The notes beneath the pieces were generated by a model, which was not told where the DNA came from, made no database searches, and was given only the letters and a program-made list of their open reading frames with translations. Of a stretch of DNA of 64,000 bases, positions 6,807 through 27,440 are shown piece by piece. Every line of letters starts with the position of its first letter. Positions within the stretch are counted from its first letter, which is position 1. The DNA comes from Candidatus Moraniibacteriota bacterium. Its GTDB lineage: Bacteria > Patescibacteriota > Minisyncoccia > Moranbacterales > JAPLXC01. The DNA lies in NCBI GenBank assembly GCA_026396275.1, contig JAPLXC010000004.1, forward strand, positions 1,193 through 65,192. Reading direction: 5' to 3'. A program made the position numbers and the translations under genes.

Positions 6807-6937
6807 GAGATTAAGTAAAAAACTGATTGTTCCAGATAACTACGATCGCTGCCAAGTAGAATAATTGTTTTTGGCAAAGTCGGCTTTATAAAATCTTCCT
6901 TTTGACGGAGGGTTTTTTTGTTGATAAACTTAATAGT

Positions 6938-9889
6938 ATGGAAAAATACAACTCGCGGAAAATAGAGAAAAAGTGGCAGAAGAAATGGGAAGAAAGCGGA
7001 ATTTACAAGAATTACAAAAAAGACAAGAAATTCTACGCTCTTGATATGTTTCCTTATACCTCCGGCGAGGGTTTGCACGTGGGCCATCCGAGAGGATACA
7101 TCGCCACTGATGTCGTTTCCCGTTTCAAGATGCTTCAGGGAGCAAGCGTTCTTCATCCGATGGGATGGGACGCTTTTGGCTTGCCAACAGAAAATTACGC
7201 CATCGAGCATAAAATTCACCCGCGGATCGTGACCGAAAAAAATATTTCTGTTTTTAAAAAACAGCTTCAAATGTTTGGTTTTACCTATGATTGGGATCGG
7301 GAGATTAATACAACGGATCCGGGATATTACAAATGGACGCAGTGGATTTTTTTGAAAATGTTTGAAAAAGGACTGGCTTATGAGTCGAACGAGCCGATTA
7401 ACTGGTGCCCCTCCTGCAAGACAGGGCTGGCGCTGGAGGATTTGGAAAAAGGATTATGCGAACGTTGCGGAACGCAGGTAGTGCAGAAAAAAATGAGACA
7501 GTGGGTTTTAAGGATGACAAATTATGCTGATCGTCTGCTTTACGATCTGGACAGCGAAGATCTAGATTGGGAGGAGCAGATTTTAGAACAACAAAGAAAC
7601 TGGATCGGGAGAAGCGAGGGAACAGAGTTCAAGATGCCAGTTGTCATTGCGAGCGAAGCAAAGCAATCTCGTACAGAAGAATCAAATTCAGAGATTGCCG
7701 CGTCGCCTTCGGCTCCTCGCAATGACATCTATATTGAAGTTTATACCACCCGTCTGGATACGGCCTTTGGGATGACATATGCAGTAGTAGCACCGGAACA
7801 TCCAATCGTCGCTTCGCTTCTCAAAATCAAAAATCAAAAATCAAAAATCAAAAATATTGAAGAAATTAGAAATTATATAATCCGGTCACAGAATAAAACA
7901 GAGCTGGAAAGAATGGAGGCAAAGGAAAAAACAGGAATGGAAATTAAAGGAATAAAAGTTATAAATCCTTTCACTAATGAGGAAATTCCGTTATTTGTTG
8001 CCGATTATGTTTTAGGCCACTACGGCACCGGCGCAGTGATGGCTGTGCCAGCACACGATGAAAGGGACTGGGAATTTGCGAGGAAATATAATTTACCCAT
8101 AAAACAATCAATCGTTCCAAATTACAGAGAATATGAAACTACAATAAAGACCCTAAATGCACTTAGAGAAATCTATAGAGCAGCTGAAAAAAAAGACTTA
8201 AGATTTTGGCTACTTGGCGGACTAGCTTGCGCTTTTTATGCGGGAATAATTTATAGGGAACACAATGATTTAGATTTAATTACCGAAAATGAAAATGACC
8301 GTATTAAAATGTTTCAATTATTGGAAAATTTGGGATTTAAAAAAATAAAGGAGAAAAAAATATCAGAAAATCTCATCAACTTTGTTTATCAACGAGGAGA
8401 AATTGAAGTTGATATTGGACCCAATCAAGGCGAATTTGGTTTGGCTGGTGATTTTGAGGAAGATATTAAATATCTAGGAGAATACCAGTCAAGAGTATTA
8501 AGCAAACGATTTGTCAAAAGTTTTAAAGAATATCAGTTGAAGACTAGAGATGAAAAAAAAGACCAAATAGACGTGGAATATTTAAGTGGTAAAGTTTTGA
8601 TTGATGATGAAGTATTGGTTAATTCTGAAAAATATTCAGGACTAACTTCCCAAAAAGCCCGAGAGGAAATGGCAAAGTGGCTGGAGAAACAAAGAATCGG
8701 CAAGAAAAAAATAAATTACAAAATGCGTGACTGGGTGTTTTCCAGACAGCGTTACTGGGGAGAACCCATTCCCATAATTCACTGCGAGAAATGCGGTGCA
8801 GTAGGGGTGCCGGAGAAGGAATTGCCTGTTACTTTGCCGGATGTTGAAAGTTACGAGCCGACCGGGACGGGCGAATCGCCACTGGCGAATATCAAAGATT
8901 GGGTGAACACCACTTGTCCCAAATGCGGCGGACCGGGAAAAAGAGAAACCAATACTATGCCTCAATGGGCGGGCTCCTCCTGGTATTATCTTCGCTACAT
9001 TGATTCAAAAAATGAAAAGGAACTTGTTGGAAAAAAAGAAGAAAAAAAGTGGATGCCGGTGGATCTCTATGTGGGCGGGATAGAACACGCTACTCGTCAT
9101 CTTCTCTACGCACGATTCTGGCACAAGTTTTTATACGATATTGGTGTTGTTTCCACAAAAGAGCCGTTTAAAAAATTAGTTCACGTCGGGCTCATTGGCG
9201 GAGAGGACGGCAGAAAAATGTCCAAGCGCTGGGGCAATGTCGTCAGTCCTAACGACGTGATAGAACAATTCGGAGCGGACTCAATCAGATTGTATGAAAT
9301 GTTTATGGGGCCTTTCACCCAGGGTATTTCATGGAGTACGGCAGGGGTAAGTGGGATGAGGAGATTTTTGGAGAAAGTATGGAAATCGCAAAATCGAATT
9401 ATGAATTACGAATCAGGAATTAAGAATAACGTTGAAAATTTATTGCATAAGACAATCAAAAAAATAACAGAAGATATAGAAAATTTCCGATTTAATACCG
9501 CACTAAGCTCGATGATGATATATATTAATCAACTTGAGAAACAAAAGAAAATATCCATGATTCATTATTCACAATTCCTAATTCTATTGAGTCCCTTCGC
9601 CCCCCATATCGCCGAAGAGCTATGGGAGAAACTAGGACACAAAGAAAGCATATTCCGGCAGTCCTGGCCGAAGCATAATCCGCAATTGATAAAAGACGAG
9701 GAAATAGATCTGGTAATCCAAGTCAATGGAAAAGTCCGCGACACTGTTAAAGTATCAGCCGATATTTCCGAAGATGAAGCGAAAAAACTAGCCTTTGAAA
9801 ATCAAAAAGCAAAAACCTTTACAAAGGAAAAAGTAATTAAAAAGGTCATTTTTGTAAAAGGCAAGTTAATTAATATCGTAGTTTCTTAG
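6938..9889 (+). CDS. leuS: Leucyl-tRNA synthetase with an embedded ~165-aa nucleotidyltransferase-like domain and two short repeat-derived insertions
   Basis: HIGH motif (HVGHPRGY), KMSKR, and the zinc ribbon CPSCK...CERCG are present. Likely start is the second Met (MEKYNSRKIEKKW). An extra segment with W..GG...R.H.D.D motif lies between the CP1 domain and the body. Confidence 0.9.
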   Translation: MEKYNSRKIEKKWQKKWEESGIYKNYKKDKKFYALDMFPYTSGEGLHVGHPRGYIATDVVSRFKMLQGASVLHPMGWDAFGLPTENYAIEHKIHPRIVTEKNISVFKKQLQMFGFTYDWDREINTTDPGYYKWTQWIFLKMFEKGLAYESNEPINWCPSCKTGLALEDLEKGLCERCGTQVVQKKMRQWVLRMTNYADRLLYDLDSEDLDWEEQILEQQRNWIGRSEGTEFKMPVVIASEAKQSRTEESNSEIAASPSAPRNDIYIEVYTTRLDTAFGMTYAVVAPEHPIVASLLKIKNQKSKIKNIEEIRNYIIRSQNKTELERMEAKEKTGMEIKGIKVINPFTNEEIPLFVADYVLGHYGTGAVMAVPAHDERDWEFARKYNLPIKQSIVPNYREYETTIKTLNALREIYRAAEKKDLRFWLLGGLACAFYAGIIYREHNDLDLITENENDRIKMFQLLENLGFKKIKEKKISENLINFVYQRGEIEVDIGPNQGEFGLAGDFEEDIKYLGEYQSRVLSKRFVKSFKEYQLKTRDEKKDQIDVEYLSGKVLIDDEVLVNSEKYSGLTSQKAREEMAKWLEKQRIGKKKINYKMRDWVFSRQRYWGEPIPIIHCEKCGAVGVPEKELPVTLPDVESYEPTGTGESPLANIKDWVNTTCPKCGGPGKRETNTMPQWAGSSWYYLRYIDSKNEKELVGKKEEKKWMPVDLYVGGIEHATRHLLYARFWHKFLYDIGVVSTKEPFKKLVHVGLIGGEDGRKMSKRWGNVVSPNDVIEQFGADSIRLYEMFMGPFTQGISWSTAGVSGMRRFLEKVWKSQNRIMNYESGIKNNVENLLHKTIKKITEDIENFRFNTALSSMMIYINQLEKQKKISMIHYSQFLILLSPFAPHIAEELWEKLGHKESIFRQSWPKHNPQLIKDEEIDLVIQVNGKVRDTVKVSADISEDEAKKLAFENQKAKTFTKEKVIKKVIFVKGKLINIVVS
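7643..7726. mobile_element. MITE-like palindromic element family A (GTCATTGCGAGCGAAGC...CTCGCAATGAC), 84 nt, in-frame inside leuS
   Basis: Terminal inverted repeats gtcattgcgag / ctcgcaatgac. Encodes VIASEAKQS... in the leuS frame and SLRGAEGDAAIS on the opposite strand, the usual signature of this repeat family. Confidence 0.6.
7823..7855. repeat. (AAAATCA)x4 heptamer tandem repeat, in-frame in leuS
   Basis: Direct read. Encodes KIKNQKSKIKN. Same repeat occurs in rnhB and the GT4 gene at 48093. Confidence 0.7.
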
Positions 9890-13973: not shown

Positions 13974-14209
13974 TGGGCACACCAAGATTCGAACTTGGGA
14001 CCTCGTCATTATCAGCTTGCCCCGCACTAAAATTCAATCTTTGTTTATACTTTTAGTGGGCGATGGAAGACTCGAACTTCCGACCTCGTCATTATCAGTG
14101 ACGCGCTCTAACCAACTGAGCTAATCGCCCAAATACTTCTTGAATTTTTAGTGCGGGGTGAACGCTCTATGCCTGCCGGCAGGCAGGTAACCAACTGAGC
14201 TATGTGCCC
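13974..14209 (-). tRNA. Interrupted tRNA-Ile(GAT)-like gene: 5' part (14163..14209) and 3' part (13974..14019) separated by ~139 nt that contain a complete tRNA-Ile. Possible intron-containing or split tRNA, or a pseudogene
   Basis: The 5' part reads GGGCACATAGCTCAGTTGGTTA, then a 20-nt insert holding a 16-nt perfect palindrome, then GAGCG. The 3' part reads CTGATAATGACGAGGTCCCAAGTTCGAATCTTGGTGTGCCCA. Acceptor (GGGCACA/TGTGCCC) and T-stem pair perfectly. The insert is flanked by CCCCGCACTAAAA / TTTTAGTGCGGGG. The 5' strand of the anticodon stem is not cleanly recoverable. Confidence 0.4.
14057..14130 (-). tRNA. tRNA-Ile (anticodon GAT), intact, nested inside the interrupted tRNA locus
   Basis: Manual fold: acceptor GGGCGAT/ATCGCCC, D-arm GCTC-AGTTGGTTA-GAGC, anticodon arm CGTCA-CTGATAA-TGACG, T-arm GGAAG-TTCGAGT-CTTCC, discriminator A. 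No encoded CCA. Confidence 0.85.
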
Positions 14210-14216
14210 TTATCCG

Positions 14217-14289
14217 TGGACCGTGCCGGAATCGAACCGGCTGCCTCCGCAGTGCAAATGCGGCGCTCTACCAGGTGAGCTAACGGCCC
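14217..14289 (-). tRNA. tRNA-Ala (anticodon TGC)
   Basis: Manual fold: GGGCCGT-TA-GCTC-ACCTGGT-AGAGC-G-CCGCA-TTTGCAC-TGCGG-AGGCA-GCCGG-TTCGATT-CCGGC-ACGGTCC-A. Confidence 0.85.
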
Positions 14290-26066: not shown

Positions 26067-27440
26067 TTATGATAAAATTCCCTCTAAATTCCAAATGTTA
26101 GCTTTAATAATTTTAATTTTGACAAATTTGCCAACGAGATTTTTTTGAGCGCTTTTAAATTTTACATTCTTCATTGTTCTGGTTCTGCCGAAATAAAATC
26201 CATCTTTTTGGCTGTCTATTATGACTTTAAATATTTTTCCCAAATAATTTTTATTATTCTCAAATGCCGTAATTTTCAGAATTTCATTCAAAAATTTTTC
26301 CCGCCTTTCTTTTTCTTTTTTGGAAACATTATCTTTCATCTTCCAAGCGGCGGTTCCCGGGCGGGGAGAAAATTGGCCAAAGTAAACCATATCATATTTG
26401 ACTTTTCTCATAATTTCAGCGGATTTGGCAAATTGTTTTCTGGTTTCCCCGGGAAAACCAACAATTATGTCAGAGGTTATCGCATATAAAACTCCCGGCT
26501 TGTATTTAGTAAACGCGGATTTAATTTTTTTAATCAGTCCCGGATAATGTCTGGCCGTATAGTTTCTGTTCATTCTTCTTAGTATTTCGTCGTCTCCGGC
26601 CTGGATGGGAAGATGCACATATTCACAAACTTTTTCGCATTTAGCAATTGTCTTAATCAATTCATCTGACATATCTTTCGGGTGGCTGGTTAGAAAATGA
26701 ATCCAGAAATTGCCGGAGATAGCATTTATTTTTTTAAGAAGCTTGGAAAAGTTTATTTTTCTATAATTATAAGAATTCGCGTTTTGTCCAAGTAAAATAA
26801 TTTCTTTATATCCCTTTTTCACTAAAACTCTGACTTCCTTAATAATTTCCTTTGCCGGACGGGAAATTTCCCTCCCTCGGGCATAGGGGACAACGCAATA
26901 AGAGCAAAAGTTGTTGCAGCCGGTCATGATCGGCACGAAGGCAGAATATTTTGTGTTGTATTTTGGCTCAATGTTTAGGTAATTGTCATTGCGAGGGAGC
27001 CCGTCAAAGGCGGATAAACTCCGCGACCGTGGTAATCCTGTAGATTTATCATCATTTAAATTATCTAGAGATTGCTTCCACCGCCAAGGTGAGGTCGCAA
27101 TGACAGACAAAATTTTTTCCGGGAATTCTTTTATTCCACAAAACAAATCAACTTTATCTTTTAACCTTCTCTGCACATCTTTTCTATTTGCCAAGCACCC
27201 GGTTAAAACAATAATCTTTTTTGTTCTATGTTTTGTGTTCCATGTTGTAAGATTATGTATTTGTCCATAAACCCGATCCTCTGCGCTTTGGCGCACGCCG
27301 CAGGTGTTGAAAATCACCAGATTGGCCTCATTGATATTTTTCCCTGGCTTAAATTTATGCAATTCCAAAAATGCCGCAATTCGTTCAGAATCGCTATAAT
27401 TCATCTGACAACCAAAGGTTTTAATAAAATATTTTTTCAT
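26067..27440 (-). CDS. miaB: tRNA-i6A37 methylthiotransferase (MiaB family, radical SAM)
   Basis: N-terminal MTTase domain (FGCQMN), radical SAM CNNFCSYC, TRAM C-terminus. Confidence 0.9.
   Translation of the reverse strand: MKKYFIKTFGCQMNYSDSERIAAFLELHKFKPGKNINEANLVIFNTCGVRQSAEDRVYGQIHNLTTWNTKHRTKKIIVLTGCLANRKDVQRRLKDKVDLFCGIKEFPEKILSVIATSPWRWKQSLDNLNDDKSTGLPRSRSLSAFDGLPRNDNYLNIEPKYNTKYSAFVPIMTGCNNFCSYCVVPYARGREISRPAKEIIKEVRVLVKKGYKEIILLGQNANSYNYRKINFSKLLKKINAISGNFWIHFLTSHPKDMSDELIKTIAKCEKVCEYVHLPIQAGDDEILRRMNRNYTARHYPGLIKKIKSAFTKYKPGVLYAITSDIIVGFPGETRKQFAKSAEIMRKVKYDMVYFGQFSPRPGTAAWKMKDNVSKKEKERREKFLNEILKITAFENNKNYLGKIFKVIIDSQKDGFYFGRTRTMKNVKFKSAQKNLVGKFVKIKIIKANIWNLEGILS
26985..27104. mobile_element. 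MITE-like palindromic element (family A-related, GTCATTGCGAG...GTCGCAATGAC), 120 nt in-frame in miaB
   Basis: Terminal inverted repeats. Encodes a 40-aa insert (SPWRWKQSLDNLNDDKSTGLPRSRSLSAFDGLPRNDNY) ahead of the radical-SAM cysteine motif. Confidence 0.55.

Follow-up and report, generated by a model that had tools for sequence, protein, structure and literature searches.

Background

Aminoacyl-tRNA synthetases (aaRS) that carry accessory domains are already known, and so are nucleotidyltransferases (NTases) of the ANT/Lnu fold. In class Ia synthetases CP1 is the textbook case of an inserted domain, itself interrupting the Rossmann fold. Here we describe leuS, the gene for a bacterial-type leucyl-tRNA synthetase (LeuRS), on a 64,000-nucleotide (nt) stretch of a Candidatus Moraniibacteriota genome (GCA_026396275.1, contig JAPLXC010000004.1, positions 1,193 to 65,192; referred to as the window). 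Within the CP1 of this LeuRS almost certainly lies a further domain, a minimal NTase.

The closest described relatives of this domain are the antibiotic NTases ANT(2'')-Ia (AadB) and Lnu(A), Lnu(D) and Lnu(P). With these it shares an N-terminal NTase fold followed by a β-hairpin and helices, the motif W-x-GG...R-x-H-x-D-x-D with a third Asp, and a match to PF10706 above threshold. Unlike the insert, these enzymes are free-standing, and only ≈47–65 N-terminal residues can be aligned with them, the C-terminal half of the insert being shorter and unrelated in sequence. In ANT(2'')-Ia the residues D44, D46 and D86 chelate two Mg2+ ions and D86 is the proposed catalytic base; activity is lost in the mutants D44A, D86A and H42A, and the Michaelis constant for ATP is higher in R40A (PMC4313920). 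The specificity of ANT(2'')-type enzymes resides in divergent C-terminal domains (Cox et al.). A similar overall fold is found in MenT1 (Rv0078A; DUF1814, AbiEii), which is also a small single-domain NTase. MenT enzymes add nucleotides to the 3'-CCA acceptor ends of tRNA (PMC10435456, PMC7450476). The insert has no detectable sequence relation to them, no antitoxin partner and no Pfam or PADLOC match of this kind, and whereas MenT proteins are growth-arresting toxins, the insert sits in an essential housekeeping enzyme.

On the side of the host protein, isoleucyl-tRNA synthetase (IleRS) with a GNAT domain (NCBIfam NF040702) likewise combines a synthetase with an extra enzyme-like domain unrelated to aminoacylation. 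The methionyl-tRNA synthetase of Mycoplasma penetrans has N-terminal NTase-like and aminotransferase domains (PMC13215547). In this last protein at least, however, the additions are terminal, and the NTase-like one is a Rossmann-type sugar-nucleotidyltransferase, while the insert described here is of the Pol-β type, lies inside CP1 and alternates with other cassettes. In a 2026 survey that covered 2.7 million classified domains, PF13603, the Pfam family of the CP1 editing domain, was insertion-exclusive and never a host (PMC13114784). In the window LeuRS, by contrast, CP1 hosts a predicted catalytic domain, which makes this a second-order nested insertion. Inteins and other selfish insertions resemble the insert in being in frame, in occupying an essential gene and in their patchy distribution among close relatives, and the insert also occurs in UvrC. 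It differs from an intein in its location, a variable surface loop instead of a conserved active-site motif, and in that the mature protein presumably still contains it.

The literature on LeuRS or other aaRS with nucleotidyltransferase or Nudix domains, on CPR/Parcubacteria (CPR, candidate phyla radiation) and on insertions yielded no description of this architecture. The catalytic domain nested in CP1, its cassette-like interchange with Nudix or other domains, and the archaeal leuS–NTase operon thus appear to be undescribed.

A nucleotidyltransferase domain inside CP1

The insert lies between the anchors ARKYNLPIKQSIVPNY (aa 393–408, nt 8078–8125) and GKVLIDDEVLVNSEKYSGL (aa 563–581, nt 8588–8644) and carries the NTase motif LRFWLLGGLACAFYAGIIYREHNDLDLIT (aa 433–461, nt 8198–8284). 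A first-pass annotation, made from the sequence alone, had proposed an NTase domain between these anchors as an in-frame segment of ≈165 aa; the domain and its frame were borne out, but its length is 154 aa (aa 409–562). The spacing between the conserved LPIK and DG.L positions is 175 aa in the window LeuRS vs 23–74 aa in insert-free orthologs. The insert splits PF13603 at profile position ≈150 of 185, and in Thermus thermophilus LeuRS the equivalent of the insertion point is the loop bounded by residues 362 and 381.

A Pfam scan, suggested by the same annotation together with a structure prediction and a survey of LeuRS orthologs, matched PF10706 (Aminoglyc_resit) to aa 421–484 with 28.1 bits when the whole protein was scanned and 30.2 bits for the excised segment alone (gathering cutoff 21), a match that spans only profile positions 2–65 of 149. 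PF14907 scored slightly under its threshold. Among PDB sequences, phmmer found ANT(2'')-Ia/AadB with E = 0.001 (3.7e-5 in a profile version) and Lnu(A) more weakly. The alignment with AadB sets LPLWIGGGWAIDARLGRVTRKHDDIDL opposite LRFWLLGGLACAFYAGIIYREHNDLDL, just as expected from the signature W-x-GG...R-x-H-D-D-[IL]-D that the first-pass annotation gives for AadB. Over its full length the insert aligns with free-standing NTases of 153–171 aa (45–54% identity).

The insert was modeled with AlphaFold2 on a 15-sequence family alignment, giving a mean predicted local distance difference test (pLDDT) of 91.8 and a predicted TM-score of 0.88. The topology is an NTase fold (H-E-H-E-H-E-E-E) followed by a β-hairpin and two helices. 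Foldseek gave a probability of 1.00 against many NTases; the top PDB match was ANT(2'')-Ia (TM-score 0.71–0.74, E ≈4e-7), followed by Lnu(A) (TM-score 0.62) and MenT1 (TM-score 0.64, E 1e-5) and then by TM1012. In BFVD only generic NTase folds were found, and the PADLOC defense models and PHROGs gave no significant match. In a model of the full-length LeuRS (pLDDT 86.2) the insert is the best-predicted part, with values of 91–98. From sequence and model together, we regard it as close to certain that the insert is a minimal NTase of the Pol-β superfamily with the two-subdomain architecture of ANT(2'')-Ia/Lnu(A), nested in CP1. An ordinary LeuRS insertion lacking the NTase fold, which the first-pass annotation had named as the outcome that would speak against its proposal, is contradicted by both the model and the Foldseek matches. 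Databases list precomputed Pfam domains for these proteins, but the annotation itself reads no more than 'class I tRNA ligase family protein'.

As judged from its sequence, the host LeuRS is otherwise intact around the insert. TIGR00396 (leuS_bact) scores 992.6 bits against a cutoff of 548.4, in two matched stretches, one on each side of the insert. The class I signatures HIGH and KMSKS are present as HVGH (aa 59–62) and KMSKR (aa 772–776), and so are the CP1 editing motifs, the T-rich TTRxDT and GTGxVMxVPAHD. In 76 orthologs, the window LeuRS included, H59/G61/H62, T282, T283, R284, D286, T287, G375–D386 and K772–K775 are invariant.

The unbroken reading frame extends at most from 6902 to 9889 on the forward strand (995 aa, TTG start). 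The true start is likely the ATG at 6938, giving 983 aa, because homologs and the NCBI record P0151 (983 aa) begin at this residue, M13. The first 12 residues of the longer frame (nt 6902–6937) are then probably untranslated; residues 1–11 have a pLDDT <50 in the full-length model. The 995-aa length, which had been put down to the NTase segment, is therefore only partly explained by it, since that figure belongs to the maximal frame with the TTG start and a second insert of ≈25–30 aa contributes as well.

Conserved residues and the C-terminal half

Within the 15-sequence family alignment R48, D52, D54 and D100 (domain numbering; R452, D456, D458 and D504 of the LeuRS) are invariant, and so are W32, F114, K119, S130, K138, K149, D150 and D153. 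The catalytic residues are thus conserved despite the family copies being merely 41–56% identical. A few copies differ at H454 or at one of the two glycines of the GG pair. Based on its motif and its strand position in the model, D504 is the predicted counterpart of D86, the proposed catalytic base in ANT(2'')-Ia.

The C-terminal half opens with a conserved acidic D-F-E-E-D-x-K, followed by LSKRF..FK.YQ.K.R..KD..D. It gives no sequence alignment with ANT(2'')-Ia, as the alignments end at about residue 80 and a profile aligns only ≈47 residues with AadB. The model has one hairpin and two helices vs two hairpins and a helical bundle in ANT(2'')-Ia, where Tyr74 and Tyr134 provide stacking. The NCBIfam model for ANT(2'')-Ia (NF000064) scores 17.5–21.4 bits against a cutoff of 350, and those for Lnu(A/C/D/P) score 16–25 bits against cutoffs of 300–340. 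On these sequence grounds the insert is not an ortholog of ANT(2'')-Ia or Lnu and should not be named an aminoglycoside-resistance enzyme. Because its C-terminal half is unalignable and the NCBIfam scores lie far below the cutoffs, the term 'ANT(2'')-like' applies only to the fold and the catalytic core.

With its residue pattern and predicted fold, the insert is quite likely to be catalytically active as a Mg-dependent transferase of nucleoside monophosphates. A nucleoside triphosphate (NTP) would be bound through R452/H454, two Mg2+ ions would be held on D456/D458, and D504 would activate an acceptor hydroxyl for attack on the NTP α-phosphate.

The CP1 loop as a site of exchange

The 120 closest LeuRS clusters (Moranbacteria/Parcubacteria, the window's own included) and three more distant ones were aligned, and loop content was defined as the residues that separate the conserved LPIK from the conserved DG.L position. 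A short loop of 23–74 aa is found in 58 of the 120 clusters. Nudix domains of 154–177 aa (PF00293) occupy it in 36, and NTases in 18, of which 13 belong to the window's family and five to divergent types. Six clusters have a domain of 127–131 aa with no significant Pfam match (P0161, P0189, P0193, P0204, P0259, and P0270), and single inserts of 140 aa (P0176) and 97 aa (P0158) likewise lack a significant match. The first-pass annotation had considered a grafted NTase unusual; the embedded domain is real but no isolated case, as the same loop is filled recurrently in LeuRS of Moranbacteria.

The embedded copies came from an exhaustive search of 1.84 billion representatives, a search with full-length LeuRS and a GTDB scan. 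A word-indexed single-sequence search with the insert returned only two free-standing proteins and missed the embedded copies, as did its profile version. NTases of the window's family were found at the same loop in the LeuRS P0004, P0005, P0006, and P0032 by the exhaustive search, and in a Moraniibacteriota metagenome-assembled genome (MAG; L008, 1099-aa LeuRS) and the contig L009 by the GTDB scan. Among the divergent NTases, P0194 matches PF10706 with 42.5 bits, P0171 aligns with the window's family by hhalign over the NTase fold only (94.6% probability), and P0185 aligns with it weakly. The Nudix assignment was confirmed by hmmscan with PF00293 in two proteins (E ≈1e-11 to 5e-12, above threshold). 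Nudix-bearing LeuRS include P0160, P0162, P0169, and P0252, with the domain in the loop that corresponds to aa 409–562 of the window LeuRS. The Nudix inserts comprise at least two subtypes (154 aa and 165–177 aa), and most of them retain the Nudix-box glutamates.

The type of insert does not track the similarity of the LeuRS cores. The nearest cores to that of the window LeuRS are 78% identical and have no insert or a Nudix domain. P0156 with an NTase and P0175 with no insert share 91% core identity; P0152 and P0153 with an NTase share 89 and 88% with the Nudix-bearing P0260 and P0252, respectively, and P0155 shares 92% with P0199, which has a different NTase type. Pairwise views of P0156/P0175, P0152/P0260, and P0155/P0199 show near-identical flanks around unrelated middles. 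Since cores that are 88–92% identical, with near-identical flanks, hold different inserts, the CP1 loop in Moranbacteria and related CPR bacteria behaves, at the sequence level, as an exchangeable cassette site. Cassettes would most likely pass from one leuS allele to another by homologous recombination, with the conserved leuS sequence on either side of the loop providing the homology.

A neighbor-joining tree of the LeuRS cores was too star-like, and nearest-neighbor and Mantel-type comparisons were used instead. Among LeuRS with an NTase of the window's family, insert identity correlates with core identity (rho 0.60 for 16 sequences and 0.29 for 13; 48 of 2000 Mantel permutations reach the observed value), which argues for some vertical descent too. 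The GC content at third codon positions (GC3) is 0.22 in the window insert vs 0.43 in the rest of leuS (Fisher p = 7e-7), while the lowest sliding window elsewhere in the gene reaches 0.32. In L009 the values are 0.21 and 0.33, and the GC-rich L008 has no such difference. The low GC3 of the insert fits a later acquisition.

Further insertions were seen in some of these proteins. The LeuRS of L008 (JAAXTX010000005, L008:191–3490) has a second insert of ≈135 aa after the HCESC zinc motif, with a weak ASCH match below threshold (E 0.006), and both of its inserts have a high GC3 like the host gene. P0032 has a PD-(D/E)XK nuclease-like domain early in CP1 (aa 279–409; PDDEXK_3, 31.5 bits). P0194 has a Nudix domain near the KMSKS region (aa 796–875) besides the NTase at the CP1 loop. 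The LeuRS of L009 (JAACEG010000065, labeled as a Lysobacteraceae MAG) is split into three open reading frames (ORFs) by apparent frameshifts or repeat insertions. It resembles the Moranbacteria-type/CPR set in its NTase insert and repeat-like peptides, and the contig may be mis-binned.

Free-standing homologs and a second host protein

The closest free-standing NTases are encoded on Woesearchaeota-like archaeal contigs with TFIIE, GINS, and Nre genes. At three archaeal loci (L001, L013, and L014; Table 1) an insert-free leuS of the bacterial type is followed downstream by the NTase gene. These archaeal LeuRS are 41–45% identical to the window LeuRS. Among the three loci the NTases share 47–63% identity and the LeuRS 59–77%, and since the arrangement is kept at these identities it has persisted. 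The archaeal leuS and NTase genes are probably co-transcribed and translationally coupled. The product of the DUF1003 gene downstream of them is a membrane protein.

The only host protein found besides LeuRS is a UvrC of 773 aa (P0008; L019:1001–3322), encoded on a single 3.4-kb metagenomic contig. It contains an NTase of the same family (aa 479–628; 70 bits, E 1.8e-14) that interrupts the RNase H-like endonuclease domain. In UvrC this domain makes the 5' incision, which leaves a DNA 3'-OH; CP1 of LeuRS binds the tRNA 3' end.

Possible functions

The best overall explanation, which we hold to be reasonably probable, is an active accessory NTase that is coupled to LeuRS and carried as an exchangeable loop cassette. 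That the function of the insert is coupled to LeuRS is, taken by itself, somewhat better than an even bet. The physical coupling would be covalent in the CPR bacteria and would take the form of a leuS-adjacent gene in the DPANN archaea. As for the acceptor, we slightly prefer, as a tentative reading, the 3' end of tRNA(Leu) or of another nucleotide or nucleic acid. The host protein would then present the acceptor 3'-OH, in LeuRS that of the tRNA(Leu) CCA end, and the reaction would serve repair, capping, or regulation. A 3'-end acceptor is favored because it accounts jointly for the coupling to LeuRS, the MenT1-like fold, the UvrC host, and the nucleotide-processing nature of the alternative cassettes.

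Several observations weigh against an accessory enzyme acting on 3' ends in concert with LeuRS. The best matches in both sequence and fold are small-molecule antibiotic NTases, with MenT1 ranked lower, and Pfam gives no DUF1814/MenT match. The net charge of the family ranges from −12 to +10 and is mostly acidic, which together with the D-F-E-E-D motif is unlike an RNA-binding surface, although charge and isoelectric point (pI) are too variable to be informative on RNA vs small-molecule acceptors. The three archaeal loci belong to related genomes with a conserved wider gene order, and their leuS–NTase synteny may represent a single evolutionary event. One close free-standing homolog (L007) has no upstream leuS, another (L011) has no leuS within the 1.6 kb examined, and distant free-standing members (≈26% identity) occur in unrelated contexts. 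The free-standing archaeal NTase genes are also poorer in GC3 than the adjoining leuS, so that the low GC3 of the insert may stem from a family- or constraint-related bias rather than from recent transfer. Finally, the rapid gain, loss, and swapping of unrelated domains would suit a merely permissive loop equally well.

A modifier of small molecules is an unlikely but serious alternative. The substrate could be an aminoglycoside- or lincosamide-like drug, an aminoacyl-adenylate mimic or another LeuRS inhibitor, and the fusion would serve co-expression or proximity to the target. The close relatives by sequence or fold that have been characterized, ANT(2'')-Ia and Lnu(A/D/P), all act on antibiotics, and the acidic D-F-E-E-D patch and often acidic pI resemble a site for cationic substrates as in ANT(2'')-Ia. 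Its patchy occurrence and fast turnover are what one typically sees in resistance or conflict genes, and the IleRS with a fused GNAT is an earlier example of an aaRS that carries a modifying domain. Yet the half that should define the substrate is unalignable to ANT(2'')-Ia or Lnu, and the NCBIfam resistance models reach 16–25 bits against cutoffs of 300–350. An enzyme acting on a diffusible drug needs no link to LeuRS, but the link recurs, as a fusion and as coupled genes, and the UvrC host would stay unexplained.

We give about the same low probability to the loop being simply a permissive site in an essential, always-expressed gene, filled with passenger enzymes that are independent of LeuRS or nearly neutral and spread by homologous recombination. 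Several unrelated domain types in one loop, the PD-(D/E)XK, ASCH-like, and Nudix inserts and palindromic-element peptides in other LeuRS loops, the independence of insert type from core similarity, the same NTase in UvrC, and the distinct synonymous-site composition of the insert all agree with it. Against this, the catalytic and ≈12 further polar residues are invariant at 41–56% identity, which implies selection on enzyme activity, and there is no mobility machinery, terminal repeat or intein motif. A permissive site also does not predict that close free-standing homologs are coupled to leuS in archaea, and both main classes of insert act on nucleotides, which is no random sample of small domains.

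Much less probable is a catalytically inactive lobe with a structural or regulatory role, such as a dimerization or nucleotide-sensing module that modulates editing. The accessory domains of aaRS are often non-catalytic, and the variation of H454 and of one Gly of the GG pair in a few copies would agree with such a role, but the full Mg-binding triad and R452 are invariant, and the alternative Nudix inserts pass PF00293, most of them with their Nudix-box glutamates. An artefact (assembly chimera, frameshifted gene pair or intein) has a negligible probability: the sequence comes from a MAG and the GC content of the insert is below that of its flanks, yet the reading frame is uninterrupted and the architecture is found in >15 independent assemblies (NCBI, JGI, ENA, and Logan), a recurrence that rules out the assembly error considered in the first-pass annotation.

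That annotation had seen no intein motifs, and an intein can be rejected: the junctions (...PNY|REYE and ...EYLS|GKV) have no Cys/Ser/Thr-HN-Cys/Ser/Thr residues, no Hint or endonuclease domain was matched, and the fold is that of an NTase. A mobile element was rejected as well, as the borders of the insert have no meaningful direct or inverted repeats.

Returning to the accessory NTase coupled to LeuRS, a more specific and rather doubtful form of this explanation is that the CP1 loop serves as a docking bay for interchangeable NTases and Nudix enzymes beside the pocket for the tRNA 3' end. These would repair, cap, or otherwise edit the acceptor end of tRNA(Leu), for example against toxins that modify tRNA ends, such as MenT (nucleotidyl extension) and toxSAS (pyrophosphorylation), or in imitation of them.

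The window itself holds adjoining genes for tRNA-Ala(TGC) and tRNA-Ile(GAT) at 14056–14289 on the reverse strand, with no rRNA match in the 64 kb. The 3' CCA is missing from both tRNA genes, which continue with CGG and CTA after the discriminator base, and the organism therefore needs a CCA-adding activity. This need does not discriminate between the acceptor readings.

Palindromic elements and other features of the window

The second, smaller insert in the window LeuRS is unrelated to the NTase. It derives from a palindromic element with an 11-nt perfect terminal inverted repeat (GTCATTGCGAG/CTCGCAATGAC) and a folding energy of −35.3 kcal/mol (z −4.7). The encoded peptide forms a disordered loop in the model (pLDDT <50 for aa 254–273) and is missing from the archaeal ortholog. 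None of the other loci compared contained the element, and the window has only one weak second match (26985–27001, 3 mismatches). Similar repeat-like peptides interrupt the LeuRS of other CPR bacteria (P0005 and L009/P0004).

Between the two tRNA genes (≈14131–14215, reverse strand) lies a tRNA-like 5' fragment (GGGCACATAGCTCAGTTGGTTA...AGAGCG), the D-loop of which is broken by a short palindrome, CCTGCCTGCCGGCAGGCAT. The fragment is not recognized as a tRNA by ARAGORN or Rfam. The neighbors of leuS in the window are folD and tsaC-like genes.

Table 1. Features of the window leuS and of the archaeal leuS–NTase loci. Positions are those of the window unless a locus is named.
Feature	Position	Strand	Basis or remarks
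leuS, bacterial-type leucyl-tRNA synthetase	6938..9889	+	TIGR00396; 100% identical to NCBI record P0151; invariant motifs
CP1 editing domain (PF13603), approx. aa 232–600	7595..8701	+	Two PF13603 stretches; aa 232–414 = profile 1–150
Small in-frame insert from 91-nt palindromic, hairpin-forming element; peptide VVIASEAKQSRTEESNSEIAASPSAPRND	7640..7730	+	aa 247–276, in CP1
In-frame minimal NTase domain, 154 aa (aa 409–562)	8126..8587	+	Pfam, phmmer, AlphaFold2, Foldseek, free-standing homologs
G439-G440 of hG[GS] NTase motif (FWLLGGLA)	8216..8221	+	Alignment; G35, G36 (domain numbering) nearly invariant
R452-E-H454-N-D456-L-D458, predicted nucleotide/Mg-binding motif	8255..8275	+	Aligned with ANT(2'')-Ia R40, H42, D44, D46
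D504 in IEVDIGP, third carboxylate	8411..8413	+	Predicted equivalent of ANT(2'')-Ia D86 (ELLDCEP)
C-terminal half of insert, β-hairpin and two helices; presumed acceptor/triphosphate-binding part	8450..8587	+	Alignment, model
leuS, 108-aa ORF (no Pfam match), NTase, DUF1003, convergent alaS	L001:5172-8958		
leuS, NTase, DUF1003, convergent alaS	L013:717-4132		TAAGATG stop/start junction of leuS and NTase
leuS, NTase, DUF1003, convergent alaS	L014:3507-6908		TAAGATG stop/start junction of leuS and NTase

Implications

The aaRS are among the most conserved enzymes, and CP1 has been viewed as a dedicated proofreading module that is always the inserted partner; here it is the host of a second enzyme. 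Even if the NTase should turn out to be a passenger, the locus provides a natural example of cassette-like domain exchange within an essential gene, and LeuRS engineering could make use of the CP1 loop as a permissive site for insertions. Should the docking-bay reading be true, it would represent a new, conflict-driven layer of 'editing' in a synthetase, shared with DPANN archaea in the form of a two-gene operon. Action of the domain on adenylate-like ligands or on the acceptor end of tRNA, should it be real, would be a new accessory activity of a synthetase, and it would also hint at the pressures, such as toxins, inhibitors, and nucleotide damage, that act on translation in ultra-small symbiotic bacteria and archaea.

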